From assembly GCA_964583105.1 (NCBI GenBank), contig CAZOUV010000005.1, forward strand, positions 1 through 53,702: 53,702 nt of DNA. Direction: 5' to 3'. Shown here in pieces: positions 7,655-27,729 of this stretch. Below the pieces are notes generated by a model. The model was not told the origin of the DNA, did no database searches, and worked only from the letters and a program-made list of their open reading frames with translations. Position 1 is the first letter of the stretch; each line of letters starts with the position of its first letter. Origin of the DNA: an uncultured Gammaproteobacteria bacterium (lineage in GTDB: Bacteria; Patescibacteriota; Microgenomatia; UBA8517). Position numbers and translations under genes: made by a program.

Positions 7655-7774
7655 CTTAGTTTTCTAAAGTATACCACCCAAGTTAAATTTCCACTACTTC
7701 TTTTAAGAAAAATATAAATATCTTTACAAGGATAACTGTTTATGTTCTTAATATTATTTGTGTTCTTAAATACT

Positions 7775-9451: not shown

Positions 9452-9494
9452 TTGTCTTTTTTCATTATACAGGTTGTGATAAACTCAAGAAGGA

Positions 9495-10028
9495 ATGAAA
9501 AAAATAATTGCAATCTTTTTGCTGTCAATTTGTTTTTTATTATCTTCTTCAAAAAATACTTCAGCAACTTGTGACAGAAAACAACCGGGTTCTTGTTCTA
9601 AAATTGTTTGTCCCGTTAGCAATGGTAACTTTTGTTGCGACACACAAAGTGAATGTGATGCTAAAAAAACTACGATTGGGACATCAGATAGTGGTATTAG
9701 TGAAGATCTTTGGTGCGACCCAATCTTCGGAATTGGTACAAAGGTAAATACGGCAATAGGGTGTGTTCCGGTTCTTGACAATAATTTATTTATGTCTTTT
9801 TTGCTTAAATGGGCTGTAGGAATTGGAGGAGGAATTGCTTTTCTTTTGATTGTCTATGCGGGATTCATGATAATGACCTCAGCAGGAAACCCCGAAAGAC
9901 TTAAGGCCGGCCAAGAACTTTTAACATCTGCAATATCGGGGCTTATTCTTTTGATTTTTTCGGTAGTTATTCTAAAAATTATTGGGGTTGATATACTTGG
10001 ACTAGATAAATTCGGTTTTAATCAATAA
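9495..10028 (+). CDS. pilin-like paralog P1: Sec signal + Cys-rich module fused to a VirB2/TrbC-like two-TM core
   Basis: Signal peptide MKKIIAIFLLSICFLLSSSKNTSA. Eight Cys follow in the next ~70 aa (TCDRKQPGSCSKIVCPVSNGNFCCDTQSEC...WC...GC). The C-terminal core is TM1-MTSAGNPERLKAGQELLTSAISGL-TM2, shared with the seven downstream ORFs. Confidence 0.75.
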   Translation: MKKIIAIFLLSICFLLSSSKNTSATCDRKQPGSCSKIVCPVSNGNFCCDTQSECDAKKTTIGTSDSGISEDLWCDPIFGIGTKVNTAIGCVPVLDNNLFMSFLLKWAVGIGGGIAFLLIVYAGFMIMTSAGNPERLKAGQELLTSAISGLILLIFSVVILKIIGVDILGLDKFGFNQ

Positions 10029-10029
10029 T

Positions 10030-10359
10030 ATGCTTGAAGAAATTCAACATGGAGCTTTTCCCAAAGCGAAAATAGCTACTAATACGAGTATTGGTAAAAT
10101 TATTTCGGACATTCTTCCTTATGTCTTTACAATTACCGGAATTTTGCTTCTTTTGTATCTTATCTTGGGAGGACTTCAATTAATGCTCGCTGCTGGAGAG
10201 CCTAAAAAGGTGGAAGGTGCACGGGGTAAAATTACAAACGCATTAATAGGTTTTGTAATTGTATTTCTTGCCTATTGGATTACTCAACTTATTGGTAAAA
10301 TATTTGATATTCAAATAATAAACAATATATTTAGTATTACAGGAGGCTTACCAAATTAA
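10030..10359 (+). CDS. pilin-like paralog P2 (VirB2/TrbC-like)
   Basis: 109 aa. TM1-MLAAGEPKKVEGARGKITNALIGF-TM2. Starts 1 nt after the P1 stop. Confidence 0.75.
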   Translation: MLEEIQHGAFPKAKIATNTSIGKIISDILPYVFTITGILLLLYLILGGLQLMLAAGEPKKVEGARGKITNALIGFVIVFLAYWITQLIGKIFDIQIINNIFSITGGLPN

Positions 10360-10668
10360 ATGAAATATCTTACCCAAGTTCCCATAAATACAACTTTCGG
10401 ATCACGTTTCGGAAATGGTAAAACAATTGGTGATATGGTTACTCTTGGGCTTGATATTGCCTTTGTTGTTGCGGGTTTAATACTTCTGGTTACTTTTATA
10501 ATCGGAGGTGTTGGTCTTATTGCGGGAGCGGGACAAAATAACCCCGAGAGACTTGAAAAAGGAAAGAAAGCACTAACTTCAACACTTATTGGTTTTGTTG
10601 TTGTATTTACTGCATATTGGATAGTAAAATTGATAGGACAAATAACCGGTTTGGAATTACTTGAATGA
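10360..10668 (+). CDS. pilin-like paralog P3 (VirB2/TrbC-like)
   Basis: 102 aa. TM1-IAGAGQNNPERLEKGKKALTSTLIGF-TM2. The tail AYWIVKLIGQIT closely matches P2 AYWITQLIGKIF. Starts immediately after the P2 stop. Confidence 0.75.
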   Translation: MKYLTQVPINTTFGSRFGNGKTIGDMVTLGLDIAFVVAGLILLVTFIIGGVGLIAGAGQNNPERLEKGKKALTSTLIGFVVVFTAYWIVKLIGQITGLELLE

Positions 10669-11021
10669 ATAAATTATTGACCGACGCCAGCAAAATATTT
10701 GGAGAAGTAAAACCACCCCCAGCAATATCTAAATATTCCTCAGATCCTGGTCTGGCTATTGGTACTATCCTTGACATAGTTTTAAAATTACTGGTTGTTG
10801 GTGCAGGGATTTACACTCTTATCAACTTGGTTTTGGCTGGTTATAGTTTTTTGTCTGCAGGTGAAGACCCTAAAAAAATTGCAGGGGCTTGGAGTAGAAT
10901 TTGGCAAAGTGCACTTGGACTTGCTGTTACCGCCGGATCTTTCACCTTGGCTGCAATATTTGGTAAGTTAATTTTTGGAAATTGGAATTTTATTCTTAAA
11001 CCAGTTATCCCAACATTATGA
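10665..11021 (+). CDS. pilin-like paralog P4 (VirB2/TrbC-like)
   Basis: 118 aa. TM1-FLSAGEDPKKIAGAWSRIWQSALGL-TM2. ATGA overlap with P3. Confidence 0.7.
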   Translation: MNKLLTDASKIFGEVKPPPAISKYSSDPGLAIGTILDIVLKLLVVGAGIYTLINLVLAGYSFLSAGEDPKKIAGAWSRIWQSALGLAVTAGSFTLAAIFGKLIFGNWNFILKPVIPTL

Positions 11022-11386
11022 AATTATCATCTATAGACATCTCTCCACCTGGCGGATTCAAAGGATTTGGCTATTACGGGTTGGAAACCACCACACCGAA
11101 TAATGCAGCTATAATTTTTGGTGGGTTTATATCTCGAATTATTGGAGTTATTACCATTGTTGCTTTCATTTGGTTCTTGTTTGTTTTTATTACAGGAGCT
11201 ATCTCAATTATTGGAGCAGGAAGCGATAAACAAGCTATGGAAACGGCAAAAAAGAAAATAACAGCTGGATTGATTGGTCTAGTTGTAACAGTTGCTGCAA
11301 TATTTGTCGTACGTTTAATTGGTAGCTTTTTGGGAATTGAAAATTTCTTAAGTCCAGCTAAGTTAATTGAACAAATAACAAAATAA
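11018..11386 (+). CDS. pilin-like paralog P5 (VirB2/TrbC-like)
   Basis: 122 aa. TM1-IIGAGSDKQAMETAKKKITAGLIGL-TM2. ATGA overlap with P4. Confidence 0.75.
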   Translation: MKLSSIDISPPGGFKGFGYYGLETTTPNNAAIIFGGFISRIIGVITIVAFIWFLFVFITGAISIIGAGSDKQAMETAKKKITAGLIGLVVTVAAIFVVRLIGSFLGIENFLSPAKLIEQITK

Positions 11387-11387
11387 C

Positions 11388-11756
11388 ATGAATCCCGATG
11401 AACGCATAGCGCCTGACATTAATGCTTTCGATATTAAAAATCCAGCTATTGGAAAATTAAACGATTTGGCCGGAGAAAGCGGGATTGGCTTTTTTCAAGT
11501 TTTTCTTCCTAAGCTATTAACCTTGGCTTTAATAATTGGCTCTCTTGTGTTCTTTTTTATTATGATAATAGGGGCGATTCAATGGATTTCTTCGGGAGGA
11601 GATAAAACTGCGCTAGAAGAAGCTAAAAAGAAAATTACAAACGCAATAATTGGTCTTTTTATTCTTTTCTCAGTATTTGCAATTCTAAAACTAATCGAAA
11701 ATTTCTTTGGTATTTCAATATTAACCCTTGACATAGGTAGCTTACTAATACGATAA
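11388..11756 (+). CDS. pilin-like paralog P6 (VirB2/TrbC-like)
   Basis: 122 aa. TM1-WISSGGDKTALEEAKKKITNAIIGL-TM2. Starts 1 nt after the P5 stop. Confidence 0.75.
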   Translation: MNPDERIAPDINAFDIKNPAIGKLNDLAGESGIGFFQVFLPKLLTLALIIGSLVFFFIMIIGAIQWISSGGDKTALEEAKKKITNAIIGLFILFSVFAILKLIENFFGISILTLDIGSLLIR

Positions 11757-11766
11757 TTGGTAAAGT

Positions 11767-12105
11767 ATGAAAGATTTGTTGGCACAAGCAGGTGAAATTG
11801 TAGATTTAAACGCTTCAGGTAATTTTAAACCCTTGGGTGGTATTACAATTACATCAATCGTTTCTGCATTAGTTAAGTTTTCATTAGTAATAGCTGCTAT
11901 TGTTTTCTTTTTTATTCTGGTTATTGGAGGAATTAGGTGGATTGCATCGGGAGGAGATAAAGCACACACAGAAGCTGCCAGAAATCAAATTACCGCAGCA
12001 TTAGTTGGGCTTGTAATTGTTTTTGCCGCTTGGGCAATAATTGCACTTATTAAAGTTTTCTTCGGAGTAGATATCTTGGTTCTCGATATCCCTTCAGCCG
12101 TTTAA
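11767..12105 (+). CDS. pilin-like paralog P7 (VirB2/TrbC-like)
   Basis: 112 aa. TM1-WIASGGDKAHTEAARNQITAALVGL-TM2. Shares identical DNA strings with P6 (TTCTTTTTTATT and TCGGGAGGAGATAAA). Confidence 0.75.
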   Translation: MKDLLAQAGEIVDLNASGNFKPLGGITITSIVSALVKFSLVIAAIVFFFILVIGGIRWIASGGDKAHTEAARNQITAALVGLVIVFAAWAIIALIKVFFGVDILVLDIPSAV

Positions 12106-12157
12106 CTTTAAACAGACACTCCTTGCCCTTATTTCTATGTTAGTTTAAAATCTAATT

Positions 12158-12460
12158 ATGGATTGTCCTGTTGATGTTAGCGGCATTGCTACATTGCAAA
12201 ATTTGGAGTGTGTATTTAAAAATGTAGTAGCTGCCGTATTGGGAATAGCGGGGATTGTTTTTTTCATTCTTCTTCTTTCTTCGGGTCTTAAATTTATTAC
12301 ATCAGGTGGGGATCCCAAAGCATTAGAAGGAGCAAAAAAAACTTTAACTTATGCAGTTAGTGGATTTATTTTAATAATTCTTTCATATTTAATTCTTCTT
12401 CTTATTTCAGAACTTACAGGGGTCGAGGTCGGCATCTTCCAAATAACAAATTCCCTCTAG
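12158..12460 (+). CDS. pilin-like paralog P8 (VirB2/TrbC-like)
   Basis: 100 aa. TM1-FITSGGDPKALEGAKKTLTYAVSGF-TM2. Two Cys in the N-terminal leader. Confidence 0.75.
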   Translation: MDCPVDVSGIATLQNLECVFKNVVAAVLGIAGIVFFILLLSSGLKFITSGGDPKALEGAKKTLTYAVSGFILIILSYLILLLISELTGVEVGIFQITNSL

Positions 12461-12482
12461 GGTTAACTGATATAATAAATTT

Positions 12483-14948
12483 ATGAAAAAGTTTGTATTT
12501 GCCCCGATCTTTTTTCTGCTTGTTTTTATTTTTCCTTATTTTTCCACAGTAAAAGCGCAGATTTGTAAAAAGGGTGAGTGCCATTATTTAAGACCATATC
12601 CTACGGAACCCATCAATGTCACTAGCGGAGAACTTGCAAATTTTTGCGGAAGCGATTTAACAATAACCCAGACAGCAACTGTAAAATATAATCCTGATGA
12701 TCCTAATTGCACTTTCAACGGAACAAATAAAATAACTTGCTCATATCAAAAACCGATTGACGATAGGGTAGTTATTAATCTTGAAAACGCAAATCTTCCC
12801 ATAATGGGAAATACTGAAGAGGTTAAAAATACAGAAAACGATGAAGATATAATAACGGATGCAGAAAAGGTAAACGAGTATGTAAGCTGGTATTTAAGCG
12901 GGGTTCCATTTAAAAAAGAATACGGTTTTCCGAATCCAACAGAATCCGATCTTGATACCGAAGAGCAAAAAAACCTTCTTAATTATTCCGGCCCCATAGC
13001 CAAGCTTCTTCCTCAGGAAATTCAACTTGCAAAAAGAATAGAAACCATCGAACGTGTTTCCGGAAAAAACTTGAATGATGATAATATTACTCCCCCAAAA
13101 GACAGAAATAATCAAACAGTTGTTTGTACAAAGACAGAACTTGATACACTACTTCTTCCCGCCACACTTGAGTGGGCTCTTGAAAAACTGGGTATCGGAA
13201 GAGAACATTCTGTCCCCTGTCCTGAAGGTGAAAAAATAAAACTGAGCGAATGGGAAAAAGATCTTTCTGTTATTAATAATTTAATTAGTGCCGAACTTTC
13301 TGTTATGAAATTATTTGCCAAGATTATTCCTTCTGTCCCCGGAGACATAATTCAAAAGGTAATCTCTGAGAATAAACCCTGGAACAGTAGGTTGCCACCC
13401 CTCTCATGGGGAAAAGATTCTGATGGAAACCCATTTGATGATTTAACTTACAAAAAAGCATACAACGAATGGCGTGGTAAATTATGCATAATTATTCCTC
13501 TTCCAAGAATGCTTGTTTGTGTGGAAAACATCTTGATACCAAATAAGTGGGCGGATCTTTTTTCGTATGTCCCACTTTCTTCGACCGAAGATTCAAAAGG
13601 GCAAGTAAATATTACCAGTGCAAGTTTCTCAACAGAAAAACCATCAGATCTTTTCTTTTCCCACATGGAAAAATCGGACGAACTGGCATCACTTCTTCGG
13701 GAAACTTATTTATATGAAGGTGCGGGCGGAGATATGTTGGGAGAAGTCAGTTATTCCGGAATAGAAACTCCAAAATCATGCAGTACCGTTGAAGTTAGAT
13801 CAAACAAGGGGGATAACCTTTTTGCAACCGAAATTGTGGGCAAACTTTCATATAACGCAAGTTTTACCTGCGATTATGTTGTTTCCGAAAATGCTCACGA
13901 TCCACTTTCGTGTAATATCTGTTCTGCAAAAAAATGTGTTTTCAATTCTCTAGCAACAAGTAACTGTAATGTTGAATACAATGAATGCGAATCAGATTTG
14001 GAATGTGCAGATTTTGTGGGTGGAGTAGTTAATAACACCTGCACAAAAACTTTTCAAATCCCCCTTTCCACAAGATCATATACACCCAAGGTTGAAAATA
14101 TTTGGTCAAAGCTGGTGGCCGGTCCCACATCAATATTTAAAAGAATATATCCCAAAGTAGGAACACAAATAGGAATCATTAAAGACATGGCCGGATCAAC
14201 TTTGGTAGATATTTCGGTGGGGGGTACTAAAACAACAGGGGAACTTAAATTTCCCCACTTGGGAGGAATCTCGGAATATTTCTTAAAAGGAATTCAAACA
14301 GCTCTTAGACCAAAGGGTTATGGGGAAACAATATCCTTTGGTGATGTTGAGGGTGGTGGTGAAGATGGGGATATTTGTGCCATCGCCGACAAATATAAAA
14401 TTCCCTGCTGTATGCTTAAAGGAATTATTGAAGTTGAAACCGGAAACAATCCAATATTTATTGGCAGTGGTATATGCAATAGGTCAAATAAAGCATTTGC
14501 CTGTTGCAATGGAAATTACTGTGGGCCAGCAAACATCGGATGTAATCAATATGATGCGTGGGACGGTGGAGACGGTTTAGATCTTTGTGATTACACCGAT
14601 TCTGCAGAACTTTTAGCAAGGGCGCTTCTTTTTAAACTTTGTCAGGCTGACCAAAAGTGTTTAAGTGGTTGGGCAACTGATGGAGATTATATTCTTGAAA
14701 ACTATTCGATTGAGGACGGTAGTTACACGGCAGCCGGATACTTCTATGGTGTAACAAACGGCTGTTTTCCTACAGCCTGTTCACAGTTTAGGTGGGGTGC
14801 GGGGAAAACTTATTGCGATGCTGTAGAGTATTACTGTGATAACGGAGGTATTCTCACATCCGGTCCGGATGTTACATTTTGTGAAGAATGTAATTTTAAG
14901 GAAATGAATGACGCAGGAATGCCAATTACCTGTTCTTTATATGAATAA
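12483..14948 (+). CDS. large secreted Cys-rich protein with C-terminal SLT-like (VirB1-like lytic transglycosylase) region
   Basis: 821 aa. Signal peptide MKKFVFAPIFFLLVFIFPYFSTVKA. About 36 Cys by hand count. From ~nt 14370, ICAIADKYKIPCCMLKGIIEVETGNNPIFIGSG fits the SLT pattern (ia.kY.iP..ll.aii.vES.fNP.a.s), with E-T at the catalytic E-S position. Confidence 0.7.
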   Translation: MKKFVFAPIFFLLVFIFPYFSTVKAQICKKGECHYLRPYPTEPINVTSGELANFCGSDLTITQTATVKYNPDDPNCTFNGTNKITCSYQKPIDDRVVINLENANLPIMGNTEEVKNTENDEDIITDAEKVNEYVSWYLSGVPFKKEYGFPNPTESDLDTEEQKNLLNYSGPIAKLLPQEIQLAKRIETIERVSGKNLNDDNITPPKDRNNQTVVCTKTELDTLLLPATLEWALEKLGIGREHSVPCPEGEKIKLSEWEKDLSVINNLISAELSVMKLFAKIIPSVPGDIIQKVISENKPWNSRLPPLSWGKDSDGNPFDDLTYKKAYNEWRGKLCIIIPLPRMLVCVENILIPNKWADLFSYVPLSSTEDSKGQVNITSASFSTEKPSDLFFSHMEKSDELASLLRETYLYEGAGGDMLGEVSYSGIETPKSCSTVEVRSNKGDNLFATEIVGKLSYNASFTCDYVVSENAHDPLSCNICSAKKCVFNSLATSNCNVEYNECESDLECADFVGGVVNNTCTKTFQIPLSTRSYTPKVENIWSKLVAGPTSIFKRIYPKVGTQIGIIKDMAGSTLVDISVGGTKTTGELKFPHLGGISEYFLKGIQTALRPKGYGETISFGDVEGGGEDGDICAIADKYKIPCCMLKGIIEVETGNNPIFIGSGICNRSNKAFACCNGNYCGPANIGCNQYDAWDGGDGLDLCDYTDSAELLARALLFKLCQADQKCLSGWATDGDYILENYSIEDGSYTAAGYFYGVTNGCFPTACSQFRWGAGKTYCDAVEYYCDNGGILTSGPDVTFCEECNFKEMNDAGMPITCSLYE

Positions 14949-14986
14949 GGCTAACATTTAAACAATTATTTTGATAATATAAAACC

Positions 14987-16693
14987 ATGAAGAAACTGCT
15001 CAAAAAAATAGTTCTTGCTTTCTTTTCTTTTTTCTTTTTAATATCCAGTTTTTTAACATTTCTTGCTCCTTCTGCTAAGGCACAGAGTCCTTGGTATTCA
15101 CAAAGCCCCACCGAGTGGTACATAAAAGTATATGATAAAGAAACTTCTCCTTCTAATGAAATTTTTGGGGAACGTTACACAGCAGCACAAGTTCAATGGA
15201 TTGTGTATAGTTTACTTTCAAACACCATTAATGCTGTTGTCGGAGAAAACATACCATTTGTTGTTTGTGTACTGAAAGCCACGGATGCAACATTTATTTT
15301 AACGGGCTGTCAAGGAAAACTCGAAGAACTGTTAACTGAAATTAGAGGAATTATTGATAAATTTGTTGACACTCGAAATTCAACCAATAATATTTGGTCA
15401 AACGCTTTAGGATTAGAAGGAAGGTCTCTCTCTGGTATAGCTTATTTAAAAAACACTTTTCATAACGTACGTTTCGCTTCAGAGGCCAAGGCTCAAACAG
15501 GATTTGGATTTAGCTCACTTGGTGCAGTACAAAAGTTGTGGAGGGGTACTAGAAATATTGCCTACCTACTCCTGGTAGTCGTGGCTGTCGTTTTTTCGTT
15601 TATGATCATGTTTAAGGTAAAACTTAATCCACAAACAGTTATTACCGTTCAATCAGCCTTGCCCAAAATTATCGCTGCTATGATTCTGGTCACTTTTTCT
15701 TACGCAATTGCAGGATTTGCGATAGATATTATGTACATAGTCATCGGCCTTATTTCTTCTCTTTTCGCAACAGCTGGGATAGCTATGTCAGGCAAGCTTG
15801 GTGTGTCGTTAACTTATGCCTTCATTAGTGGCCACACAATATTATTTGAAGGATTTGTTATTCTAGAATACATGCTTATATATGCCATAACTTTTTTTGT
15901 TGTTGCTTTAATAACCCTCGTTACATCACTCATGTCGGCTTCCATATTCGGATCTTTGACCTCTGTTATTATGTTTATTATTTGGGTTTGGATTTTGATT
16001 CTTGTAATCTGGTATACAGTAAAGGTTCCTTTTGTTTTAATCAAAACTTTAGTGCAAATATATTTGTCAATTATTGTCGCACCAATTCAAATTATGCTTG
16101 GATCACTAGTTCCACAAATGGGTTTTGGCGTGTGGTTTAAAAATTTGATGGCACATGTTCTTGTTTTCCCTGTAATCGGGGCTCTTTTTTATCTTGCGTT
16201 TTTCTTTCTGATTTATGCCGTAGTTACTGCACTTGATGTGGCTATTATTCACAATTGGGCTGTGGAGCTTGTTCAAGTCTTTGGCGGATTTAATCTTGGT
16301 CTTTTAGGGGCTTCACTTTGGTCTCCCCCCCTATTAGCCCCAGGAAAGGTCCTAACCCCAATAATTTTTATGGCAATAAGCTTTGGCGCAATTGTTTTAA
16401 TACCAAAAGTTCCAAATATGTTAAAATCAATCTTTATGAGAGAAAAATTCGATTATGGTTCAGCAATGAATGAAGCAACTGGTATAGCTAAAGGTGCCTG
16501 GGGCATGACTGGCGCACCGTTTGTAAATCAGGCTCGAGAAGGATGGAGTTTGACTACTGCCCCCAACATATGGGCAGGATTGCGAGACTTTACGTCTCGT
16601 GGAGGAACGGGAAATAGGGTATCGAGGTTTTTCGAAGAACGCCGAAGGGTAGCCACAGAGACGGGTAGAAAGGCTGGTGTTATTACCCCATAA
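14987..16693 (+). CDS. polytopic membrane protein, VirB6/TrbL-like
   Basis: 568 aa. Signal peptide ...FLAPSAKAQSPW, a ~170-aa extracytoplasmic region, then at least 7 hydrophobic helices and a basic cytoplasmic tail. Assignment rests on topology and context between the pilin genes and VirB4, not on a motif. Confidence 0.6.
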   Translation: MKKLLKKIVLAFFSFFFLISSFLTFLAPSAKAQSPWYSQSPTEWYIKVYDKETSPSNEIFGERYTAAQVQWIVYSLLSNTINAVVGENIPFVVCVLKATDATFILTGCQGKLEELLTEIRGIIDKFVDTRNSTNNIWSNALGLEGRSLSGIAYLKNTFHNVRFASEAKAQTGFGFSSLGAVQKLWRGTRNIAYLLLVVVAVVFSFMIMFKVKLNPQTVITVQSALPKIIAAMILVTFSYAIAGFAIDIMYIVIGLISSLFATAGIAMSGKLGVSLTYAFISGHTILFEGFVILEYMLIYAITFFVVALITLVTSLMSASIFGSLTSVIMFIIWVWILILVIWYTVKVPFVLIKTLVQIYLSIIVAPIQIMLGSLVPQMGFGVWFKNLMAHVLVFPVIGALFYLAFFFLIYAVVTALDVAIIHNWAVELVQVFGGFNLGLLGASLWSPPLLAPGKVLTPIIFMAISFGAIVLIPKVPNMLKSIFMREKFDYGSAMNEATGIAKGAWGMTGAPFVNQAREGWSLTTAPNIWAGLRDFTSRGGTGNRVSRFFEERRRVATETGRKAGVITP

Positions 16694-16707
16694 CCCTAAA
16701 AACAATT

Positions 16708-19326: not shown

Positions 19327-19452
19327 ATCTATCGAATTTTATCATTTAATCAACAAAACTAGCAAATGGTACTTTTGATTGTGAAAAGGTGTTCTTGTTG
19401 CACTTCCTTGTTCACGCTGTAATCTAAAAACTAGAAGGTATTATTACTGCCT

Positions 19453-20529
19453 ATGGAAAGTCATCCTATACCACAACAAATTTCCTCATATCAATTTCGA
19501 CTTGTTGGTGATATGACCCTTAAGCAGTTTTTTCAGATTGCGGGGGGTGCTTTGATTTCAATTATTATCTACTCCCTTCCTTTAATGGGGATTATTAAGT
19601 GGCCCTTGGTTGTCTTTTTTGCACTTCTGGGAATTGCCCTTGCCTTTTTACCTCTTGAGGAAAGACCGTTGGAGCGCTGGATCATTGCCTTTTTTAAATC
19701 TGTTTATTCTCCTTCTTTGTTTTTTTGGAAAAAAACCAAAAACGAATTTAATTACTATCAAGATGAGGCAACTGCCCCTACCGAAAAAATTGTATATCCC
19801 GGGGGAGAGGCAAAATTGCAGGAATATCTAAAATCTTCTTCTGGTGGTAACCTGGCCGGAAGTTTGGAAAAACTTGAAAATTCTTTTCTTTCGGGCCTAT
19901 CCGGTATTTTTTCCAGCGTAATTCCCACCATGAAAGTAACTTCTACTACTATTCCCCAAGTTGGTATCCAAGAAGGTCCTCCTAAACCGGTTGCTGTACC
20001 TAATGAAATTCCTATTAAAATTCCCGTTGCTACAAATATACCCAAACTAGTTGTTGAAGAAACATCCTTTAAAGAAAATGTTACTCCACTTATTTCAACC
20101 ACTGAAGTTACACCAACCTCATTGGGCCAAAATTTAGTTGCTCAAAAACAAGCACAATTCTCAATTGATGCTGCTCCACCAAGCCCGCCAACTTCTCCAA
20201 ATACATTAACAGGTCAGGTTGTTGATCAGGAAAAACATATTGTGGAAGGTGCAATTATGGAAATTAGAGACAGTTCCGGAAGACCGGTAAGAGCTCTTAA
20301 AAGCAATAAACTCGGACACTTCATGGTTGTAACACCATTAATGAGCGGAAAGTATGAAATCATTACCGAAAAGGAAGGTTTCAATTTCGACCCCATTTCT
20401 TTTGAGGCCGAAGGGGAAATTATCCCCCCGATTGCGGTTTTTGGTAATAAAATTCCGGGGGGTGTTTCTTCTCAGGTTTTACAAACTGGTATAAATCAAG
20501 AAACTGTAGTTAAAACAAATCAATTATGA
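19453..20529 (+). CDS. PrgI/VirB3-like membrane protein fused to a Pro-rich linker and a CarboxypepD_reg-like beta-sandwich
   Basis: The N-terminus PIPQQISSYQFRLVGDMTLKQFFQIAGGALISIIIY plus a second TM is the PrgI-family signature. C-terminus LTGQVVDQEKHIVEGAIMEIRDSSGRPVRALKSNKLGHFMVVTPLMSGKYEIITEKEGFNF resembles a carboxypeptidase-regulatory-like domain. Confidence 0.65.
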   Translation: MESHPIPQQISSYQFRLVGDMTLKQFFQIAGGALISIIIYSLPLMGIIKWPLVVFFALLGIALAFLPLEERPLERWIIAFFKSVYSPSLFFWKKTKNEFNYYQDEATAPTEKIVYPGGEAKLQEYLKSSSGGNLAGSLEKLENSFLSGLSGIFSSVIPTMKVTSTTIPQVGIQEGPPKPVAVPNEIPIKIPVATNIPKLVVEETSFKENVTPLISTTEVTPTSLGQNLVAQKQAQFSIDAAPPSPPTSPNTLTGQVVDQEKHIVEGAIMEIRDSSGRPVRALKSNKLGHFMVVTPLMSGKYEIITEKEGFNFDPISFEAEGEIIPPIAVFGNKIPGGVSSQVLQTGINQETVVKTNQL

Positions 20530-21209
20530 AAAAGATTGTTAAAATTCCCAAAATTCCGTTTTTAAGCATACCTGATGTGCCGCTTACGGCTTCTTCGCAA
20601 ACACATCTTCCTATTGCTGATATTTGTGATGATATTGTTCTTTATAAAGACGGGGGGGCTGCAGTTGTTTTGGAATCAACTTCTCTTAATTTTAGTCTTC
20701 TTTCGGAAAAGGAACAGGAAGCTGTAATTGCAGCTTACGCGGCACTTCTTAATTCCCTTACTTTTTCAATTCAATTCATGGTCAGAAGCCAAAAAAAGGA
20801 CATTTCCAGTTACATGAATTATCTTGATGAATCTGCTAAAAAAATTGCAAACCCCGGCCTTTACCGGTTGATGCAATCTTACAGAAAATTCATTCTGGAA
20901 TCCGTCAAAAAAAGGAATGTTTTAGGGAAAAAGTTTTTTGTTGTTCTTCCTTTTAGTCCACTGGAGTTGGGAGTTACCAAATCGGTTCTTTCCATAACCA
21001 AAGGCAAAGGCCCTCTTCCTTACCCCAAATCTTACGTAATTAAAAAAGCCAAGGTTATTCTTTACCCAAGAAGGGACCATCTTATAAGGCAAATGGGAAG
21101 ATTAAGTATCAAATTAAGACAGCTTTCAACTGAAAATCTGGTTTCTCTGTACCACGAAGTCTACAATCCCGTTAAGCCCGAACCTAGAAAAAAGGAGGAA
21201 AATTTATGA
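20526..21209 (+). CDS. VirB4 N-terminal-domain-like protein (separate ORF)
   Basis: 227 aa. HLPIADICDDIVLYKDGGAAVVLESTSLNFSLLSEKEQEAVIAAYAALLNSLTFSIQFMV resembles the N-terminal region of Gram-positive VirB4/TraE-type ATPases. ATGA overlaps at both ends. Confidence 0.55.
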   Translation: MKKIVKIPKIPFLSIPDVPLTASSQTHLPIADICDDIVLYKDGGAAVVLESTSLNFSLLSEKEQEAVIAAYAALLNSLTFSIQFMVRSQKKDISSYMNYLDESAKKIANPGLYRLMQSYRKFILESVKKRNVLGKKFFVVLPFSPLELGVTKSVLSITKGKGPLPYPKSYVIKKAKVILYPRRDHLIRQMGRLSIKLRQLSTENLVSLYHEVYNPVKPEPRKKEENL

Positions 21210-23014
21210 ATCAAACAAATCAAATAAAAGGTGTTATAAATAACCAACAAGCTCCCGTGCAGGTTGCTGCAAAACCGGTTATTCCGAGTGTTCCTTTTGC
21301 CCTGAAGCAAAAGGAACTAAGGGTTGATGACATCATTGCACCCGAAAAAATAGAGGTTGATTTTGATTATTTCAAAATAAACGATGTCTATTTTAGAACC
21401 ATATTTGTAGCAGGATACCCGAGGTTTGTAACTCCCGGGTGGCTTGAGCCGATTGTTAATTTCGACAGTTCTTTGGACATTTCCTTTTACATCTATCCCG
21501 TTGACGGAAAATCCGTTCTTGACGATCTAAGAAGAAAGATCGCAGAAATGGAAGCGGAAATTTCAACAGACCTTCAAAGAGGAAAGATACTTGATCCTTC
21601 AACCGAAGCAAAACTGGAAGATGCAAGAAGCCTTCAGGAACAACTTGTAAAAGGCGCTGAAAGGTTTTTTGAATTCGGGTTTTACATCACAATTCCTGCA
21701 GCCAACCTTGAAGACCTTAACCATACAACAAAACAGATAGAGTCAACACTTGGTTCTTTAATGATTGTTGCCAAACACGCCCTTCTTGATCAGGATATGG
21801 GCTTTTTAACCACGGTTCCTTTCGGTTTCGACAGATTAAATATTACAAGAAACATGGACACAACATCCCTTTCCACAACATTCCCTTTAACTTCTGCTGA
21901 ACTATCAAGCGACCATGGAATTCTTTATGGAATTAATTCCAAAAACGAATCTTTCATTATCTTTGATAGATTTTCTTTGGAGAATCCGAACATGACGATC
22001 TTTGCTACATCGGGTGCCGGAAAAAGCTTTTTTATCAAACTGGAGGCTCTTCGAAGTTTGATGTTAGGAACAGAAATTATGATTATTGATCCCGAAACAG
22101 AATATAAACCGCTAGCAAAAGCTGTCGGTGGAGAATATATTTCTTTTGGATATAACTCTCCCTCCAAAATAAATCCTTTTGACTTATCCCAAGCTGTTGA
22201 AGAGGGAGAAAACCAATTGGGACTTAAGATTCTTTCTTTACATTCTCTATTTAAAGTAATCATGGGTCAAATTACACCTACACAGGAAGCTTTGCTTGAT
22301 AGAGCATTAGTTACCTGCTACCGAGCCAAGGGAATAACTCAAGATCCCGCAACACAAACCAAAGAACCTCCTTTAATGGAAGATCTTTATAAAACCTTAA
22401 TCGGTATGGAATCGCCCGAAGCCTTGGATTTGGCCGCAAGAATAGAAAAGTTTGTCAGAGGAAGTTTCATGGGAATATTCGACCAGCAAACAAACGTTAA
22501 TTTAAAAAATCCTTTTACTGTTTTTTCTGTCAGAGACTTACAAGATGCATTAAGACCAATCGCTATGTTTATAATTCTTGATTACATTTGGACAAGAGTT
22601 AAAAAAGACCTCAGGAAACGTCTCTTAATCATCGAGGAGGCCTGGCACATGATGAAATACCCCGATACCGCTCAGTTTCTTTGGTCCGTCGTTAAAAGGT
22701 CAAGAAAGTATTTCCTGGGGTTAACAACAATTACCCAAGATGTTGAAGACTTTCTTTCCCAGGATATAGGAAAAGCAATTGTAACCAATTCCGCCCTACA
22801 ACTTCTTTTAAAACAATCCCCTGCGGCAATTGATAAAGTGGGAGAAGTTTTCTATCTTTCTCAGGGAGAAAAGAATTTACTTCTTGCCGCGAATGTTGGA
22901 GAAGGAATATTTTTTGCTGGACCACATCATGCACCAATTAGAATTACAGCTTCGCAAGATGAATATCAGCTCATAACATCAAAGCCGCAGGATATTGTTG
23001 CTAAACAGCCATGA
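21206..23014 (+). CDS. virB4: VirB4-type T4SS ATPase
   Basis: 602 aa. Walker A IFATSGAGKSFFIK (nt ~22004-22030) and Walker B RLLIIEEAWHMM. The upstream part YFRTIFVAGYPRFVTPGWLEPIVNFDSSLDISFYIYP is typical of the VirB4/TrbE/CagE family. Confidence 0.85.
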   Translation: MNQTNQIKGVINNQQAPVQVAAKPVIPSVPFALKQKELRVDDIIAPEKIEVDFDYFKINDVYFRTIFVAGYPRFVTPGWLEPIVNFDSSLDISFYIYPVDGKSVLDDLRRKIAEMEAEISTDLQRGKILDPSTEAKLEDARSLQEQLVKGAERFFEFGFYITIPAANLEDLNHTTKQIESTLGSLMIVAKHALLDQDMGFLTTVPFGFDRLNITRNMDTTSLSTTFPLTSAELSSDHGILYGINSKNESFIIFDRFSLENPNMTIFATSGAGKSFFIKLEALRSLMLGTEIMIIDPETEYKPLAKAVGGEYISFGYNSPSKINPFDLSQAVEEGENQLGLKILSLHSLFKVIMGQITPTQEALLDRALVTCYRAKGITQDPATQTKEPPLMEDLYKTLIGMESPEALDLAARIEKFVRGSFMGIFDQQTNVNLKNPFTVFSVRDLQDALRPIAMFIILDYIWTRVKKDLRKRLLIIEEAWHMMKYPDTAQFLWSVVKRSRKYFLGLTTITQDVEDFLSQDIGKAIVTNSALQLLLKQSPAAIDKVGEVFYLSQGEKNLLLAANVGEGIFFAGPHHAPIRITASQDEYQLITSKPQDIVAKQP

Positions 23015-25221
23015 CTAGGTTACCGGACATAAATTTATTAACCTCCAGACAACTGGAGGAAATTTTGAAAACCTGTGACAGCTATCTTGGAAAAAAATTA
23101 GGCCTTGAAGGATCTTCCGACAACCTAAAACTTCCTGTAATTATTTCGGGTCTAAATCTGTCATGGAAAAGTGTTGATGATTTTGAGGGGGATATTAATA
23201 TATTTACCGGAGAAAAAAACATCCGTTCTGCATATGCAAAACTTTATACTTTATGGGAACAAAAACTTCATCAGGAAAAGTCCGAAAAAGTAGAACGAAC
23301 CACTCCAACAAAAGAATCCCTGAAATCAAGCGAAGAAGAAAGGGTAAAAAGAGAAAAAATTCTAAGGGAATCGGAAGTTAAGGGAAAAGTTCAAACCGAA
23401 AAGTTTATTAAAAGTCAAAAGGTATACCTCGAAGCAAAAGAAAAAACACAAGAAATAACCTTAACCGAACAGGAAAATATTGCTTTGGGTAAGTTAATAC
23501 AATCCGCAGAGAGCGATCCCAAAACCTTTGTGGCGGAAATGGCACAGGAAATTTCAAACAAAACCGGCGCAGATCCTGAAAGCTGTCAGGTTGCTGCCCT
23601 TGATTTTTACACAAAAATAAATTCTAAAACGACCGATGTTCCTCCCAGTGCATTTTTAGCGGTTGCCTCCTCGCAAAAAGATCCGGAAATTATTGAAGCA
23701 TCTCTTAGTTTTGCTCAACTATATGAACTAAAAAATAAGGAATTAAGATCTTTAATACAACCCGTCTTGGGAGAAAAAATTATTCAAGTTTTTTATCCTT
23801 TAGGTAATCAAGAATTTAACGTAACCAACGAGAAAACCGACAAGTCCGAATATGAAATAGATTTGGGACAATTACAGTCCGATTTCCGGAATTTTCAAGA
23901 CTCTCCCGTTCTTGATCAAATTAAAAATCAGGGAAAATCGGTTATTAAAGAATGGGTTGCAAATAAAATTGAATCTCTTCCCGCCCAAAGCGCGTTTAAA
24001 GGGTTTGTTTCAAGAATAAAATCTTCCCAACTTTTCAAACAAGCTCTTCCTTTTTTGGGGATGGCTCCTACAACCGAAGTTGTAACAACTTCATTTGTTG
24101 GAAAAACTATTAATTTTTTGTTTCCTCAGTTTGCACCAAAAATCGCACAAGTAGCTACAAGACTGGGAATTGATTTGGGAATTAGAGCAACCGCAACCGT
24201 TGCCGCCGGAACAACAGGAACTACCGCAGCTAAAGCGCTTGGTGCAAATTTGGGGAAAGTTGCAGCAGGAGCTTTAGCAAAAATAGGCATAAGCATTCCC
24301 GCATCATTTATTCCTGGTTTAAACATTGCTTTATGGGCAATCACAATTATTTCCATTCTTAAAGATTTAAAGAATTTTATTCAACAGTTCGGACCAAAAA
24401 TTAAACAATGGTTAAGTGACAATGCGCATTGGCTTGTTGGAATAGGTGCGGCCGGACTTTTATTTAGAAACCCGATAATAAATGTTTTAGGAATTACTTC
24501 AATTTCTGCAGGCATTCTTTCAGGGGCTTCTTTTGCAAAAATTGCTGGGCGTACTGCTTTTTTCTTTGCAAGATTAGGTGCTTCGATGGCCGTAACAATA
24601 GGTACTCCAATTATCATTACTATAATTGTTTTTCCAATATTAGTTGCAATTATTTTATTTATAATTAATTCCGGGGCATACGTTGTTCCTCCAAAATCGT
24701 CAACAAGTATACCCGGAGAGTGTATGGGAGATGTTGCCGTTAAGCCCGAAGCAACGGGAATTATGTTTTCACCCGACAATAAATATGCTTATCCGGTTGC
24801 TCCCTCAGGTTCGACCGGGGAAAGTTGTACGCACTGGGACAAATCTTTGGCAACAGATATTTTTCCTGCTAACAAACATGCTCCGGTAATTGCATACACT
24901 TCAGGAAGTATTGAGGGAATAAGCTTAACCGATTCTAAAGGGGGAAAATATGTGATTCTTGCCGGAAATGACGGAAGATATTACTACTATGCACACAACT
25001 GTGCATTGTTTGTGAAAGAGGGAGACGCTGTGTTTGCGGGAGATGTTATTGCAACAACAGATCAGTCTGGATCTGCTAACGGAACCGCTGAACATTTGCA
25101 TTTTGCAATCAGCAGTGCCCCTAATTTTGTTAACGGTGGCACGGTTTGTCCTTCTCAGGATTTTGCAGACAAGTTTCCGGATTATAATAAATGTAAACCC
25201 GAAGAAATGTGTATTCCTTAA
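23011..25221 (+). CDS. membrane protein with N-terminal coiled coil, Gly/Ala-rich polytopic segment and C-terminal M23 (LytM) peptidase domain
   Basis: 736 aa. Several TM helices in aa ~370-560. The C-terminus has YYYYAHN...GDVIATTDQSGSANGTAEHLHFAIS (M23 HxH motif). Confidence 0.8.
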   Translation: MTRLPDINLLTSRQLEEILKTCDSYLGKKLGLEGSSDNLKLPVIISGLNLSWKSVDDFEGDINIFTGEKNIRSAYAKLYTLWEQKLHQEKSEKVERTTPTKESLKSSEEERVKREKILRESEVKGKVQTEKFIKSQKVYLEAKEKTQEITLTEQENIALGKLIQSAESDPKTFVAEMAQEISNKTGADPESCQVAALDFYTKINSKTTDVPPSAFLAVASSQKDPEIIEASLSFAQLYELKNKELRSLIQPVLGEKIIQVFYPLGNQEFNVTNEKTDKSEYEIDLGQLQSDFRNFQDSPVLDQIKNQGKSVIKEWVANKIESLPAQSAFKGFVSRIKSSQLFKQALPFLGMAPTTEVVTTSFVGKTINFLFPQFAPKIAQVATRLGIDLGIRATATVAAGTTGTTAAKALGANLGKVAAGALAKIGISIPASFIPGLNIALWAITIISILKDLKNFIQQFGPKIKQWLSDNAHWLVGIGAAGLLFRNPIINVLGITSISAGILSGASFAKIAGRTAFFFARLGASMAVTIGTPIIITIIVFPILVAIILFIINSGAYVVPPKSSTSIPGECMGDVAVKPEATGIMFSPDNKYAYPVAPSGSTGESCTHWDKSLATDIFPANKHAPVIAYTSGSIEGISLTDSKGGKYVILAGNDGRYYYYAHNCALFVKEGDAVFAGDVIATTDQSGSANGTAEHLHFAISSAPNFVNGGTVCPSQDFADKFPDYNKCKPEEMCIP

Positions 25222-25227
25222 AATTAT

Positions 25228-26397
25228 ATGACTAAAAAAATAATAATTATTTTAACCGTATTAATATCCATCACCTCTCTGATTTTTATTTTTATTGTTT
25301 CCAAAAAACCAACCTTAAGTTTAACAATCGAACCTCAAGGCTCAACAGTACTTATTGACGGAGCCGAAATTAAAAACAAAGCTTTAAAAATAAAAGTCGA
25401 CCAAGGTATTCACGAAATTCAAGTCGTAAAAGAAGGGTACCGTCCTTATCAGCAAGAAATAACAATTAAAGAAGATTATTCCCAAAAAATCGTTCTTATT
25501 CCAATCGATCAAGAAATAGTTAAAGAAGAACCCAAGATACTTAAAATATCACCCTATTTCGCCGAAGACTTTCGACCAATTTCTGATAAGGCTTTAATTG
25601 CTATCAACAAAAACAATTCTTATCTAGTTAAAATTACCGATTCTGGCGTAACCACTTTATACTCAAAACCTGTTTATACCTATTCCTATGTTTATCCTTT
25701 TGTGGCCCTGATAGAAAAAGGAGGGCAAGATAAAATAGTTATTATCAATATTGAAAACAACCAAACCAAAATTTATGATGCAAGGACTATCTCCCCCATT
25801 ATTTCTATAGCGCTTGAAACCGGCGCGAAAAAGATGTTTCTTTTAGGAAAACAGGATTTGTCTACCAGAACATCTGTTCTCTATACATCGCCCATTGAAG
25901 CTTTTAACCCTAACGAGATTGGATCATTTGTTGCAGATTCTCTTCACTCTTTACCGGAAAATAAAATTGTTTTTTCTCTTTCTGCCGACGCCATGGATTT
26001 AAGTAAATTTTCTGTTTATGATCTCTCAAATTCAAAATATCTATATCAAACAAAAGGAAATGGAGTTTTAATATCTCCGTCATTTTACAATTTGGTTTTT
26101 TACTCGTCCGATAATATAATTCTTTTTAATTTAGATACAACAGAAACCAAAAACCATCCTTTTTCTTTTGCAAACCAAAAAGTGTTTTGGAAAGACGATA
26201 ATACATTAGGAATTCTTAGCAACAAATATCCCGGGGTAAGCATTTCTTTAATAAATTTTGTTTCTGGATACCAAACATCAAATATCGACATACCGCAACT
26301 TAATCAGATTTCAATAAGGTTTATTCTGGGTTCCTACAACAACGTTCTTTACCTGCTCGACGCAGAAGGAAAAACTTGGTCAGTTAATCTTCCTTAA
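25228..26397 (+). CDS. PEGA-domain membrane-anchored protein with C-terminal repeat/beta-propeller-like region
   Basis: 389 aa. N-terminal TM helix, then LSLTIEPQGSTVLIDGAEIKNKALKIKVDQGIHEIQVVKEGYRPYQQEITI (PEGA). Confidence 0.75.
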   Translation: MTKKIIIILTVLISITSLIFIFIVSKKPTLSLTIEPQGSTVLIDGAEIKNKALKIKVDQGIHEIQVVKEGYRPYQQEITIKEDYSQKIVLIPIDQEIVKEEPKILKISPYFAEDFRPISDKALIAINKNNSYLVKITDSGVTTLYSKPVYTYSYVYPFVALIEKGGQDKIVIINIENNQTKIYDARTISPIISIALETGAKKMFLLGKQDLSTRTSVLYTSPIEAFNPNEIGSFVADSLHSLPENKIVFSLSADAMDLSKFSVYDLSNSKYLYQTKGNGVLISPSFYNLVFYSSDNIILFNLDTTETKNHPFSFANQKVFWKDDNTLGILSNKYPGVSISLINFVSGYQTSNIDIPQLNQISIRFILGSYNNVLYLLDAEGKTWSVNLP

Positions 26398-27500
26398 CTC
26401 TGAATTTTTACAGGCATTATCAAATGAAGGAAATCTGTGTCTTTTGGATCAGTAAATACTCCGGGAGATGCGGAATTGTTAAATTCCATTAAAACTTCTT
26501 CCCCTTCAGTTGTTTTCAAAAAGTCTTCTAAAAATTTGTAGTTAAAAGATATTTCCAATCCCTCTCCTTCAATTTTTGCATCAACTGTTGTTTCCTGACT
26601 ACCTACCTGTGAGCTTTCAGCAGTAAGCTTTATAGAATCCTTCATAATTTTGATCTTGACAATGTTTGCCGAATCCCTTGCAAATACAGATGCAAGTTTT
26701 ACCGCTCTGAGTATTTCTTCTTTATCTACTCTTACTTTTACACTTGAACCTTTAGGTATTATTTTTTCATAATCGGGAAAATCTCCTTCCAAAACCCTTG
26801 AAGAAAGAATTAGATTATCAAAACCAAAAACAACCTGTTTTTCTTTACCTTTAATATCAAGTAATGTGTTTTCATTTTCTTCCCCTATTCTTGAAACTTC
26901 CATAAGAACGTTTTTAGGAATAACAGTTTTTATTTCCTTATAAGAATTTTCCAAATGAACAATCTTTTTGGAAAGCCTAAATCCGTCTGTTGAAACTAAA
27001 GTAAGACTTTTACCTGAAAGGAGAAAATAAATCCCGGTAAGAATAGGTCTTGTTTCATCTGAAGAAGCTGCAAAAGAAACTTGAGACAAGGCTTTTAGAA
27101 ACTCTGTTTTTGAAAGATCAATCGATCCTTCTTTTTTAATAACTTGGGGAACTTTCGGAAAATCTGCAGCGTTCATTCCGGATATTTTTGCACTGAAACC
27201 TAAACTTGAAACTTTTAGATTTTCCTTTTCAGAAGAAAGATGAATATTCCCTTGTGAAAGATTGTTTACAACTTCAAATAAGTTTTTTGCAGGGATTGTC
27301 ATTTCTCCTTCCTCTTTTATTTTCGCCCCTAATGAAATTGAAGCTGAAGTTTCTAAATTGGTTGCAGAAAGTGTTAGTTTTGTTTTATCACTCTTAAGAA
27401 GAATGTTTGAAAGAACAGGAAGTTGTGCTCTTGATGCAACAAATCTTGACGTTATTGAAAGAGCCTTATTTAAATTTTCCTGCAATACTTCTAAATCCAT
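26394..27500 (-). CDS. dnaN: DNA polymerase III beta sliding clamp
   Basis: 368 aa. LNKALSITSRFVASRAQLPVLSNILLKSDKTKLTLSATNLETS is the typical clamp N-terminus. Located downstream of dnaA. Confidence 0.93.
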   Translation of the reverse strand: MDLEVLQENLNKALSITSRFVASRAQLPVLSNILLKSDKTKLTLSATNLETSASISLGAKIKEEGEMTIPAKNLFEVVNNLSQGNIHLSSEKENLKVSSLGFSAKISGMNAADFPKVPQVIKKEGSIDLSKTEFLKALSQVSFAASSDETRPILTGIYFLLSGKSLTLVSTDGFRLSKKIVHLENSYKEIKTVIPKNVLMEVSRIGEENENTLLDIKGKEKQVVFGFDNLILSSRVLEGDFPDYEKIIPKGSSVKVRVDKEEILRAVKLASVFARDSANIVKIKIMKDSIKLTAESSQVGSQETTVDAKIEGEGLEISFNYKFLEDFLKTTEGEEVLMEFNNSASPGVFTDPKDTDFLHLIMPVKIQS

Positions 27501-27540: not shown

Positions 27541-27729
27541 AATTAAATTTTCTCTGTTTTAACTTAACTTTATATATCATATATTAATTAGTAGTACTAG
27601 TAGTAGGCAATGTTGATAAGTGGAAAGAAAGAAGTGTTTAAATACAAGCTTCGGAAAAAATTTGTGTTAATAATAAGCCTAGTGAATTGTTGATAAATTT
27701 GTGGATAACTGTTCATACTTTGTTGATAA
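27541..27729. promoter_or_regulatory. oriC core: AT-rich DUE candidate, DnaA-trio-like TAG repeats, four co-oriented DnaA boxes
   Basis: AT-rich stretch 27541-27588. TAGTAGTACTAGTAGTAG at 27589-27606, then GCAA. Boxes: TGTTGATAA 27611-27619, TGTTGATAA 27688-27696, TGTGGATAA (exact complement of TTATCCACA) 27700-27708, TGTTGATAA 27721-27729. Confidence 0.75.

Follow-up and report, generated by a model that had tools for sequence, protein, structure and literature searches.

A probable Patescibacteria-type type IV secretion system next to the predicted replication origin of a Woesebacteria-like genome

Results

A T4SS locus in two plus-strand blocks

The 53.7-kb stretch of contig CAZOUV010000005.1 analysed here (hereafter "the window") carries a type IV secretion system (T4SS) locus, arranged as two plus-strand blocks (9495-16693 and 19453-26397) that are split by a large minus-strand open reading frame (ORF; 16708-19326). 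We consider it likely that the locus is a vertically inherited, chromosomal T4SS of the Patescibacteria type, residing in a Woesebacteria-like (Microgenomatia) genome and descended from the MPF-FATA conjugation machinery of monoderm bacteria. Its identification as a T4SS follows from the Pfam and NCBIfam assignments, from the identity between its VirB4 protein and PrgJ of plasmid pCF10, from a gene order that parallels that of pCF10 and from nearest homologs in Woesebacteria and Microgenomates. Loci of this type, combining a pilin array, a split VirB4, a lack of relaxase and a position close to the origin, were already described in 2023 and 2025; the window provides a further Woesebacteria example.

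Fifty ORFs of the window, among them all non-nested ones of at least 98 aa, were compared with Pfam. A scan with one genome per species yielded 80 related loci from Microgenomatia-type organisms, among which the presence of each gene was counted by tblastn with the window proteins as queries. Some comparisons cover 84 related loci, labelled with an L and a number (for example L084); the closest relative compared, L081, served as reference for the gene-by-gene identity figures. The ORFs listed in an original prediction, made from the sequence of this DNA, were all present where it had placed them. The features of the locus and of its right-hand flank are the following.

9495-10028, plus strand: pilin 1, with a signal peptide, a Cys-rich extension of about 90 aa (9 Cys) and a VirB2-like hairpin
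10030-12460, plus strand: pilins 2-8, seven tandem VirB2-like paralogs with two transmembrane segments
10030-10359, plus strand: pilin 2
10360-10668, plus strand: pilin 3
10665-11021, plus strand: pilin 4, no Pfam match, paralog by hhalign
11018-11386, plus strand: pilin 5, PF18895 at 23.5 bits, under the cut-off of 26.6
11388-11756, plus strand: pilin 6
11767-12105, plus strand: pilin 7
12158-12460, plus strand: pilin 8
12483-14948, plus strand: 821-aa secreted Cys-rich protein, with an N-terminal body of about 620 aa and a putative lysozyme/SLT-like C-terminal domain
14987-16693, plus strand: 568-aa polytopic membrane protein, candidate VirB6/PrgH analog
16708-19326, minus strand: 872-aa soluble, acidic, highly charged protein, in the variable slot and divergent from PrgI
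19327-19452: divergent intergenic region of 126 bp, between the 872-aa gene and PrgI-TrsD-VirB4
19453-20529, plus strand: PrgI/VirB3-like membrane protein, 358 aa, with a Pro-rich linker and a CarboxypepD_reg-like beta-sandwich
20526-21209, plus strand: TrsD-like protein (detached VirB4 N-domain), 227 aa, overlapping virB4 by 4 bases
21206-23014, plus strand: VirB4 ATPase, 602 aa, CD1110 / MPF-FATA type, lacking the N-terminal domain
23011-25221, plus strand: 736-aa M23 protein, with about 420 aa of soluble, charged N-terminal sequence, then membrane segments and the M23 peptidase at the C-terminus
25228-26397, plus strand: 389-aa membrane-anchored PEGA-domain surface protein
26394-27500, minus strand: dnaN (Pfam DnaN)
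27754-29136, minus strand: dnaA (Pfam DnaA)

The motor genes: VirB4, TrsD and PrgI

VirB4 scores 386 bits (cut-off 325) with NCBIfam model NF045971, "VirB4-like conjugal transfer ATPase, CD1110 family", and 108.6 bits with Pfam P-loop_TraG. Its Walker A (ATSGAGKSF) and Walker B (LLIIEEAW) motifs, on which the original prediction had relied, fall at residues 267-275 and 473-480, respectively. The alignment to NF045971 covers only positions 180-751 of the 752 in the model; similarly, the match to pCF10 PrgJ (26% identity over 570 aa, E 2e-44) involves PrgJ residues 228-782. The region preceding virB4 encodes the TrsD-like protein, which matches NCBIfam TrsD (E 3.7e-7, with a score far short of the curated threshold), positions 129-286 of VirB4_plasma and positions 26-115 of the CD1110 model. 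Pairwise BLASTP of this protein against PrgJ gave no significant match, the link being made by hidden Markov models (HMMs) only. In two related loci, TrsD and VirB4 are fused in a single ORF (L018:1877-4381, 834 aa; L038:390-2834, 814 aa). These fusions support the interpretation that TrsD and the 602-aa VirB4 of the window represent a split full-length VirB4, consistent with the separate VirB4-N-like ORF proposed originally. A further ORF, L027:7432-9873, may be a PrgI-TrsD fusion.

The 358-aa protein encoded ahead of TrsD has a hydrophobic region at residues 26-71, with two membrane segments. It scores 26.5 bits with PF12666 (cut-off 27) and matches PF13620 at E 9e-4; of its orthologs from Microgenomatia, 28 out of 28 match PrgI (best E 1e-8) and 27 out of 28 match CarboxypepD_reg, in agreement with the PrgI/VirB3-like character initially ascribed to the protein. 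Among the 80 related loci, tblastn detected VirB4 in 80, TrsD in 74, PrgI in 72, and dnaN and dnaA in 63.

VirB4 homologs number 7,962, the nearest bearing the names Candidatus Woesebacteria or Patescibacteria, and also Microgenomates. The 120 matches listed are 78-94% identical to the window protein, and nearly all of the named ones among them are Woesebacteria or Patescibacteria, with one labelled Alphaproteobacteria. All 80 related loci show a Microgenomatia-type gene context. Many public records of metagenome-assembled genomes that bear this locus, including L004, L008, L011, L019, L026 and L043, carry titles such as "uncultured Gammaproteobacteria/Pseudomonadales bacterium", "Nevskiaceae" or "Candidatus Methanoperedens". 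Such oddly titled records, having a Microgenomatia-type T4SS-dnaN-dnaA locus, probably reflect mislabelled taxonomy or mis-binned contigs.

Chromosomal fixation next to the origin

Downstream of the locus lie dnaN, a DnaA-box cluster, dnaA, rnpA, yidC and jag. The DnaA-box-like sites include four TTATCCACA-like sites at 27611-27729, in the dnaN-dnaA spacer, one of which is a perfect TTATCCACA; a further perfect DnaA box is found at 29155, upstream of dnaA. Over the whole window, DnaA boxes do not exceed chance expectation (22 against 16.6 expected). The cluster in the spacer and the perfect box upstream of dnaA place the predicted oriC at about 1.2 kb from where the T4SS locus ends.

This neighbourhood is shared by the related loci. 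Among the 58 that have at least 8 kb of sequence downstream of virB4, dnaN/dnaA lie downstream of virB4 in 55 (median distance 1.6 kb) and upstream in two more. The closest Woesebacteria keep the order pilins, 821-aa protein, 568-aa protein, slot, PrgI, TrsD, VirB4, M23, dnaN, dnaA, rnpA, yidC, jag, Wzy, and the left neighbour of the locus is SpoIID in L084 as it is in the window. The GC content of the locus is that of its flanks. No att-like direct repeats surround it, the repeats found corresponding to pilin paralogy, and no tRNA gene adjoins it. The remainder of the window is made of housekeeping genes (SmpB, a ValRS-type synthetase, TsaD/TsaE, GroES/EL, YidC, L25 and cell-wall genes).

The Pfam scan of the 50 window ORFs identified no relaxase, VirD4/TcpA-type ATPase, integrase, VirB9/10 or VirB11 domain, as anticipated, and no relaxase-like HUH motif occurs in the unassigned window ORFs (oriT was not searched for). 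Conserved P-loops in the window are confined to VirB4, DnaA and TsaE. When the window was searched by tblastn with the type IV coupling protein (T4CP) of L084, the best match (E 0.19) fell on VirB4 itself.

Taken together, the position of dnaN/dnaA after virB4 in 55 of the 58 loci, the conserved neighbours (SpoIID to the left, dnaN-dnaA-rnpA-yidC-jag to the right), the flank-like GC content and the lack of att-like repeats, tRNA and integrase strongly suggest that the locus is chromosomal and vertically inherited, and not an integrated conjugative element (ICE). The original prediction had pictured a chromosomally fixed, non-ICE, Gram-positive-style machine in a Patescibacteria-like organism, flanked by housekeeping genes (SpoIID-like, dnaN). 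The synteny with relatives, the Pfam matches of the flanking genes and the Woesebacteria homologs agree with this picture; att repeats or an integrase bounding the locus, which it had named as grounds for abandoning it, were looked for in the window and none was found.

The pilin array

Of the eight small ORFs at the start of the first block, seven match Pfam PF18895 (T4SS_pilin), and six of these exceed the gathering score. The remaining one, pilin 4 (10665-11021), is linked to the others by hhalign against their profile (probability 96%, E 2e-9). All eight contain a hairpin of two hydrophobic segments, with a short loop bearing a G-G-D/N-P-like motif, and the eight VirB2-like proteins with two transmembrane segments originally proposed are thereby recovered. 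Pilin 1 scores 29 bits with PF18895, has hydrophobic segments at residues 1-22, 98-132 and 140-175, and shares 65% identity with its counterpart at the start of the L084 array.

The paralogs share just 20-33% identity with pilin 2, whereas pilins 4-8 have colinear positional orthologs, 44-72% identical, in L003, L004, L006, L007 and L013. L084 contains orthologs of pilins 2-8 at 47-61% identity and keeps the eight-gene order, with a first member that is long and Cys-rich. The higher identity between positional orthologs than between paralogs indicates that the paralogs checked fit better with fixed, distinct subunit roles than with an antigenic-variation cassette.

Secreted, polytopic and surface proteins

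The 821-aa protein carries a signal peptide and 36 Cys, confirming its description as secreted and Cys-rich. It has zero Pfam or NCBIfam matches, its C-terminus yielding none in Pfam even at E 1, and its 340 homologs, variable at the C-terminus, are all unnamed proteins of the candidate phyla radiation. Among orthologs, the C-terminal catalytic-type domain appears to be swapped: it corresponds to PF18896 SLT_3 in the L007 ortholog and in P0232, P0305, P0308 and P0330, to PF09992 in one case, or has no Pfam match. An AlphaFold2 model of the window protein (82 sequences; mean pLDDT 80.5, pTM 0.67) was compared by Foldseek with PDB and BFVD, yielding weak recurrent matches that span 130-200 columns and point to SLT domains and goose-type lysozymes (LT_GEWL). 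The top BFVD match (probability 0.99, E 0.028) has an SLT domain, and several LT_GEWL proteins come next; the PDB matches, SltB1 (best, 0.6), g-type lysozyme, MltC, MltE and MltF, all have a probability of 0.6 or less, and no fold match reached E 0.001 in either database. The SLT-like end attributed to this protein is thus moderately supported, through its orthologs and these weak fold matches. Residues 1 to about 620 (12483-14350) form a conserved secreted domain with motifs such as LPIMGNTE, VSWYLNG and EYFLKGIQTALRPKG; this region is modelled with good confidence, and neither PDB nor BFVD yielded a structural match to it.

The 568-aa protein consists of an N-terminal signal/anchor, an external region of about 150 aa, roughly six to eight hydrophobic segments at residues 187-479 and a C-terminal tail. 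Its gene lies upstream of PrgI-VirB4, mirroring the position of PrgH in pCF10, and it was found by tblastn in 22 of the 80 loci. The protein has no Pfam or NCBIfam match, a PDB profile search returned 0 matches, and hhalign against pCF10 PrgH gave a probability of 0.2%; TrbL is matched by a single one of 19 orthologs (E 0.0015). Assignment to VirB6 by homology was tried and rejected, the Pfam, NCBIfam, PDB-profile and hhalign results all being negative. Of the VirB6/TrbL-like label used originally, the polytopic character and the PrgH-like position stand; the HMM and profile tests for VirB6 failed.

The second block ends with the M23 and PEGA proteins, both of which had been correctly named. 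The former matches PF01551 at residues 618-703 (52.5 bits), has hydrophobic segments at 429-451 and 521-562, and is 23-37% identical to its counterparts in relatives along most of its length; by its place in the locus it is the positional analog of a PrgK/VirB1-type wall hydrolase, virB4 of pCF10 likewise being followed by a gene for such an enzyme. The PEGA protein (PF08308, 38.4 bits; N-terminal anchor at residues 1-30) has no tblastn match across the 84 related loci. In relatives, the interval between the M23 gene and dnaN is occupied by differing genes of 151-335 aa that encode small surface proteins (for example Big_5 in L082), making the site of the PEGA gene a second variable position. 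Elsewhere in the window, at 47073-48735, a 203-aa M23 peptidase (minus strand) and a 282-aa PEGA+SH3 protein (plus strand) surround a tRNA-Cys gene, echoing the M23/PEGA pair that closes the T4SS locus.

Comparison with L081 ranks these parts by conservation. The rates differ sharply from gene to gene: identity is 93% for VirB4, 84% for TrsD and 78% for PrgI, and 89% for rnpA, 86% for yidC and 85% for dnaA on the origin side. It falls to 38% for the 568-aa protein and 37% for the M23 protein, and neither the 872-aa protein nor the PEGA protein has a match in L081. From these figures, the cytoplasmic motor appears nearly frozen, with the envelope and surface parts turning over.

A variable slot between the two blocks

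The minus-strand gene at 16708-19326, which the first reading of the window had omitted, encodes an 872-aa protein with no Pfam or NCBIfam match and no hydrophobic segment. Its relatives are 8 among 5.8e9 proteins and, by profile, 91 among 1.84e9 representatives. Among the related loci compared, homologs in the same slot were found in L084 and L007 only. Minus-strand slot proteins are encoded at L003:5328-8099, L009:5845-8067, L081:3366-5435, L082:2719-4800 and L007:5750-8173; the other Woesebacteria slot proteins measure 650-920 aa and are likewise soluble and highly charged, with no detectable similarity to the 872-aa protein and mostly none to one another. An AlphaFold2 model of the 872-aa protein (9 sequences) was poor (pLDDT 54.5) and Foldseek retrieved nothing from PDB. 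A single family comprising all slot proteins was considered and rejected, as the profile recovers the L007 protein only and hhalign of family A against family B gave a probability of 0.1%. A Walker-like motif in the 872-aa protein (AIKNYGKS) was likewise dismissed as a chance match, its G and K varying within the family. No terminal domain common to the slot proteins and suggestive of a secretion signal could be detected, which argues against a shared signal of this kind.

In five Gottesmanbacteria-type loci (L044, L045, L048, L050 and L062), the slot is occupied, on the same strand, by a VirD4-like T4CP with DUF87, TrwB_AAD_bind and TraG-D_C domains (5581-7773, minus strand, in L050). L084 has such a VirD4-like T4CP at 17108-19243 on the plus strand, 47% identical to the slot T4CPs, which breaks up the pilin array. 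The absence of a coupling ATPase noted originally therefore holds for the window and does not extend to the homologous loci of these six relatives.

Other genes were also seen inside the T4SS locus of relatives. Toxin-antitoxin-type genes lie at L081:403-1703 and 6321-8252 and at L082:587-994 and 5028-8286; the types present in these two loci, whose VirB4 proteins are 92-93% identical to that of the window, are NTP_transf_2/HEPN, HepT, AbiEii, HicB-like, NYN and 23S_rRNA_IVP. L084 contains an rve integrase fragment at 9288-9890.

The occupants of the slot raise the possibility, which we regard as unlikely, that it is a cargo or adaptor position, with fast-evolving proteins of the 872-aa type acting as lineage-specific secreted effectors or as non-ATPase substitutes for a coupling protein. 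Alternatively, the slot may be a plain insertion hotspot at a divergent promoter. If the cargo interpretation were true, the locus would harbour at its centre the gene for a T4SS substrate aimed at the host.

By its position, the 126-bp spacer must hold the promoters of both the 872-aa gene and PrgI-TrsD-VirB4. On the plus strand, the promoter put forward for the second block (19395-19423) does have its two hexamers and 17-nt spacing, TTGTTG-17-TGTAAT, with 3/6 and 5/6 consensus matches; the minus strand presents TTGCTA-18-TAAAAT with an upstream TG (19365-19336). Promoter-like sites are not above chance in the region (52 found, against 53 +/- 6.6 expected from shuffled sequence), and both candidates are statistically indistinguishable from chance.

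Discussion

Relationship to described systems

The original prediction regarded the composition and function of such loci as largely untested, a statement made out of date by two studies. Wang et al. 2023 (Cell; PMC10633639) described an "apparent T4SS" in the cultivated Saccharibacterium Ca. Southlakia epibionticum (SEML1_0006-0019), closest to Gram-positive conjugative systems and without recognisable coupling protein or relaxase. Transposon sequencing showed these genes, including the pilin series, to be essential; the requirement for epibiotic growth has been shown for Ca. Southlakia epibionticum only (PMC10633639). Quinonero-Coronel et al. 2025 (PMC12102498) surveyed 3,035 Patescibacteria genomes, Microgenomatia included, and found the Patescibacteria VirB4 proteins to form a monophyletic clade nested in MPF-FATA, with rare transfer between classes. 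In their catalogue, the commonest VirB4 partner is TrsD, with PrgI/VirB3 and VirB6 also present; pilin arrays number 441, of 2-11 genes each, notably in Microgenomatia and Saccharimonadia; the place of VirB1 is taken by M23 and lysozyme proteins; relaxases occur in just 103 genomes; T4CP homologs, found in 2,918 of the 3,035 genomes, are mostly distant from virB4; and dnaA, dnaN and rnpA are enriched near virB4 in Paceibacteria and Microgenomatia. A 2025 review counts the Patescibacteria systems among the newest T4SS types.

The window shares with this clade an MPF-FATA-type VirB4, a separate TrsD ORF, PrgI/VirB3, tandem divergent PF18895 pilins, a peptidase or lysozyme beside virB4, the lack of a nearby relaxase and proximity to dnaA/dnaN. 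It differs from the published description in two respects. In Microgenomatia, VirB3 was reported near virB4 for 22.6% of homologs only (PMC12102498), whereas PrgI directly precedes TrsD-VirB4 in 72 of our 80 loci; and VirB6 is described as scarce in the class, whereas loci of the window type have a conserved polytopic protein in the VirB6 position. The available portions of PMC12102498 hold no discussion of the 821-aa secreted protein or of the variable slot. Three leads go beyond the literature cited here: the slot with its variable content, the set of orthologous pilins and the secreted domain without known fold.

Among systems outside the clade, the MPF-FATA prototype, Prg/Pcf of the Enterococcus faecalis plasmid pCF10, offers the closest parallel in gene order: PrgH-PrgI-PrgJ-PrgK corresponds to the 568-aa protein, PrgI, TrsD/VirB4 and M23. 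Both are of monoderm design, without VirB7, VirB9 or VirB10. Only pCF10 has the T4CP PcfC, the relaxase PcfG, an oriT and the adhesins PrgA/B/C; moreover, it is a plasmid with no VirB2 pilins and a single 796-aa VirB4, whereas the window locus is chromosomal, with eight pilins and a split VirB4. Helicobacter pylori ComB is a chromosomal T4SS with VirB2-, VirB3-, VirB4- and VirB6-like parts and no relaxase or VirD4. Unlike the window, ComB is diderm and includes ComB7-10 (VirB7-10 homologs), and its VirB4 belongs to a different clade. Tandem divergent VirB2 paralogs are also found in the T4SSs of Bartonella and Anaplasma, a precedent cited in PMC12102498; there, the role usually ascribed to them is antigenic or host-range variation, in contrast with the positional orthologs, conserved across genera, of the paralogs checked here.

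A working model and its rivals

In the model that we favour, TrsD/VirB4 would be docked on PrgI and on the 568-aa protein (the VirB6 analog) and would drive both the removal of pilins from the membrane and the building of a heteromeric pilus or conduit from them. The cell's own wall would be opened for its passage by the M23 and lysozyme-like enzymes. Having reached the host bacterium, the pilus or conduit would let substrates pass without conjugative DNA or relaxase processing. The genes for the 821-aa and 568-aa proteins lie in a separate upstream operon. As to cargo, we tentatively judge export of proteins or effectors to the host to be the most likely. The proximity to the origin appears to reflect long-standing vertical inheritance and is possibly linked to gene dosage.

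Several points weigh against this model. The VirB6 role of the 568-aa protein is without homology support, the protein being a positional and topological analog, and no VirB8-like component was identified. The absence of a T4CP covers 53.7 kb, and relatives carry one within the locus, so that transfer, including that of DNA, may be T4CP-dependent. Lastly, a substrate, a pilus or translocation is demonstrated for no Patescibacteria T4SS, the function of which was called "completely unknown" in a 2024 perspective (PMC11665869).

The membership of VirB4 in the conjugation-type CD1110 family could also be explained by a mobile T4SS module, an ICE or its decayed remnant, inserted by chance near oriC, and the toxin-antitoxin modules of L081 and L082 and the rve fragment and T4CP of L084 do look like mobile insertions within the locus. 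It is difficult to reconcile such an origin with a constant site between SpoIID and dnaN-dnaA across Microgenomatia, with VirB4 sequences that are 73-93% identical among the Woesebacteria-type loci compared, declining roughly in step with DnaA, or with the monophyly and rare between-class transfer of Patescibacteria VirB4 (PMC12102498); nor were a relaxase, integrase, att repeats, flanking tRNA or GC shift found in the window. We view the ICE interpretation as largely refuted already and extremely improbable. Somewhat better placed, if still unlikely, is an import device resembling ComB or the archaeal Ced system, which would bring in DNA, nutrients or other host macromolecules. This idea, raised in PMC11665869, suits an organism unable to make nucleotides, and the window, like ComB, is without relaxase and T4CP. 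VirB4 also matches the NCBIfam models of two DNA-import ATPases, CedB (48 bits) and CedD (29 bits); these matches are weak and far under the cut-offs, however, the best match being to a conjugative VirB4. In Southlakia, the T4SS is essential and ComEC dispensable (PMC12857230), so the essential role is something other than uptake along the canonical route.

A surface pilus devoted to adhesion or host recognition, with zero translocation, would account for the conservation of eight pilin paralogs and for the Cys-rich external domain on the first of them, as well as for the PEGA and beta-sandwich surface proteins and for the lack of a T4CP in the window. We hold it to be improbable, less so than the ICE and more so than import: type IV pili already serve adhesion and motility in Patescibacteria (PMC11665869 and 2025 literature), the locus retains wall hydrolases and a candidate for a VirB6-like channel, and relatives hold a T4CP within it. 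A vertically inherited secretion machine of MPF-FATA descent is our preferred interpretation.

Significance

Patescibacteria, which may account for a quarter of bacterial diversity, live attached to the cells of their hosts. Theirs is the first T4SS for which an essential role in the bearer has been demonstrated. The window supplies a clean Woesebacteria example of this machinery and leaves the published picture unchanged. Its value resides in the details: the distinction between parts that seem near-frozen and parts that turn over, and pilins that would act as fixed, distinct subunits. The variable slot and the 620-aa secreted domain without known fold are the places where host-specific functions may be sought.

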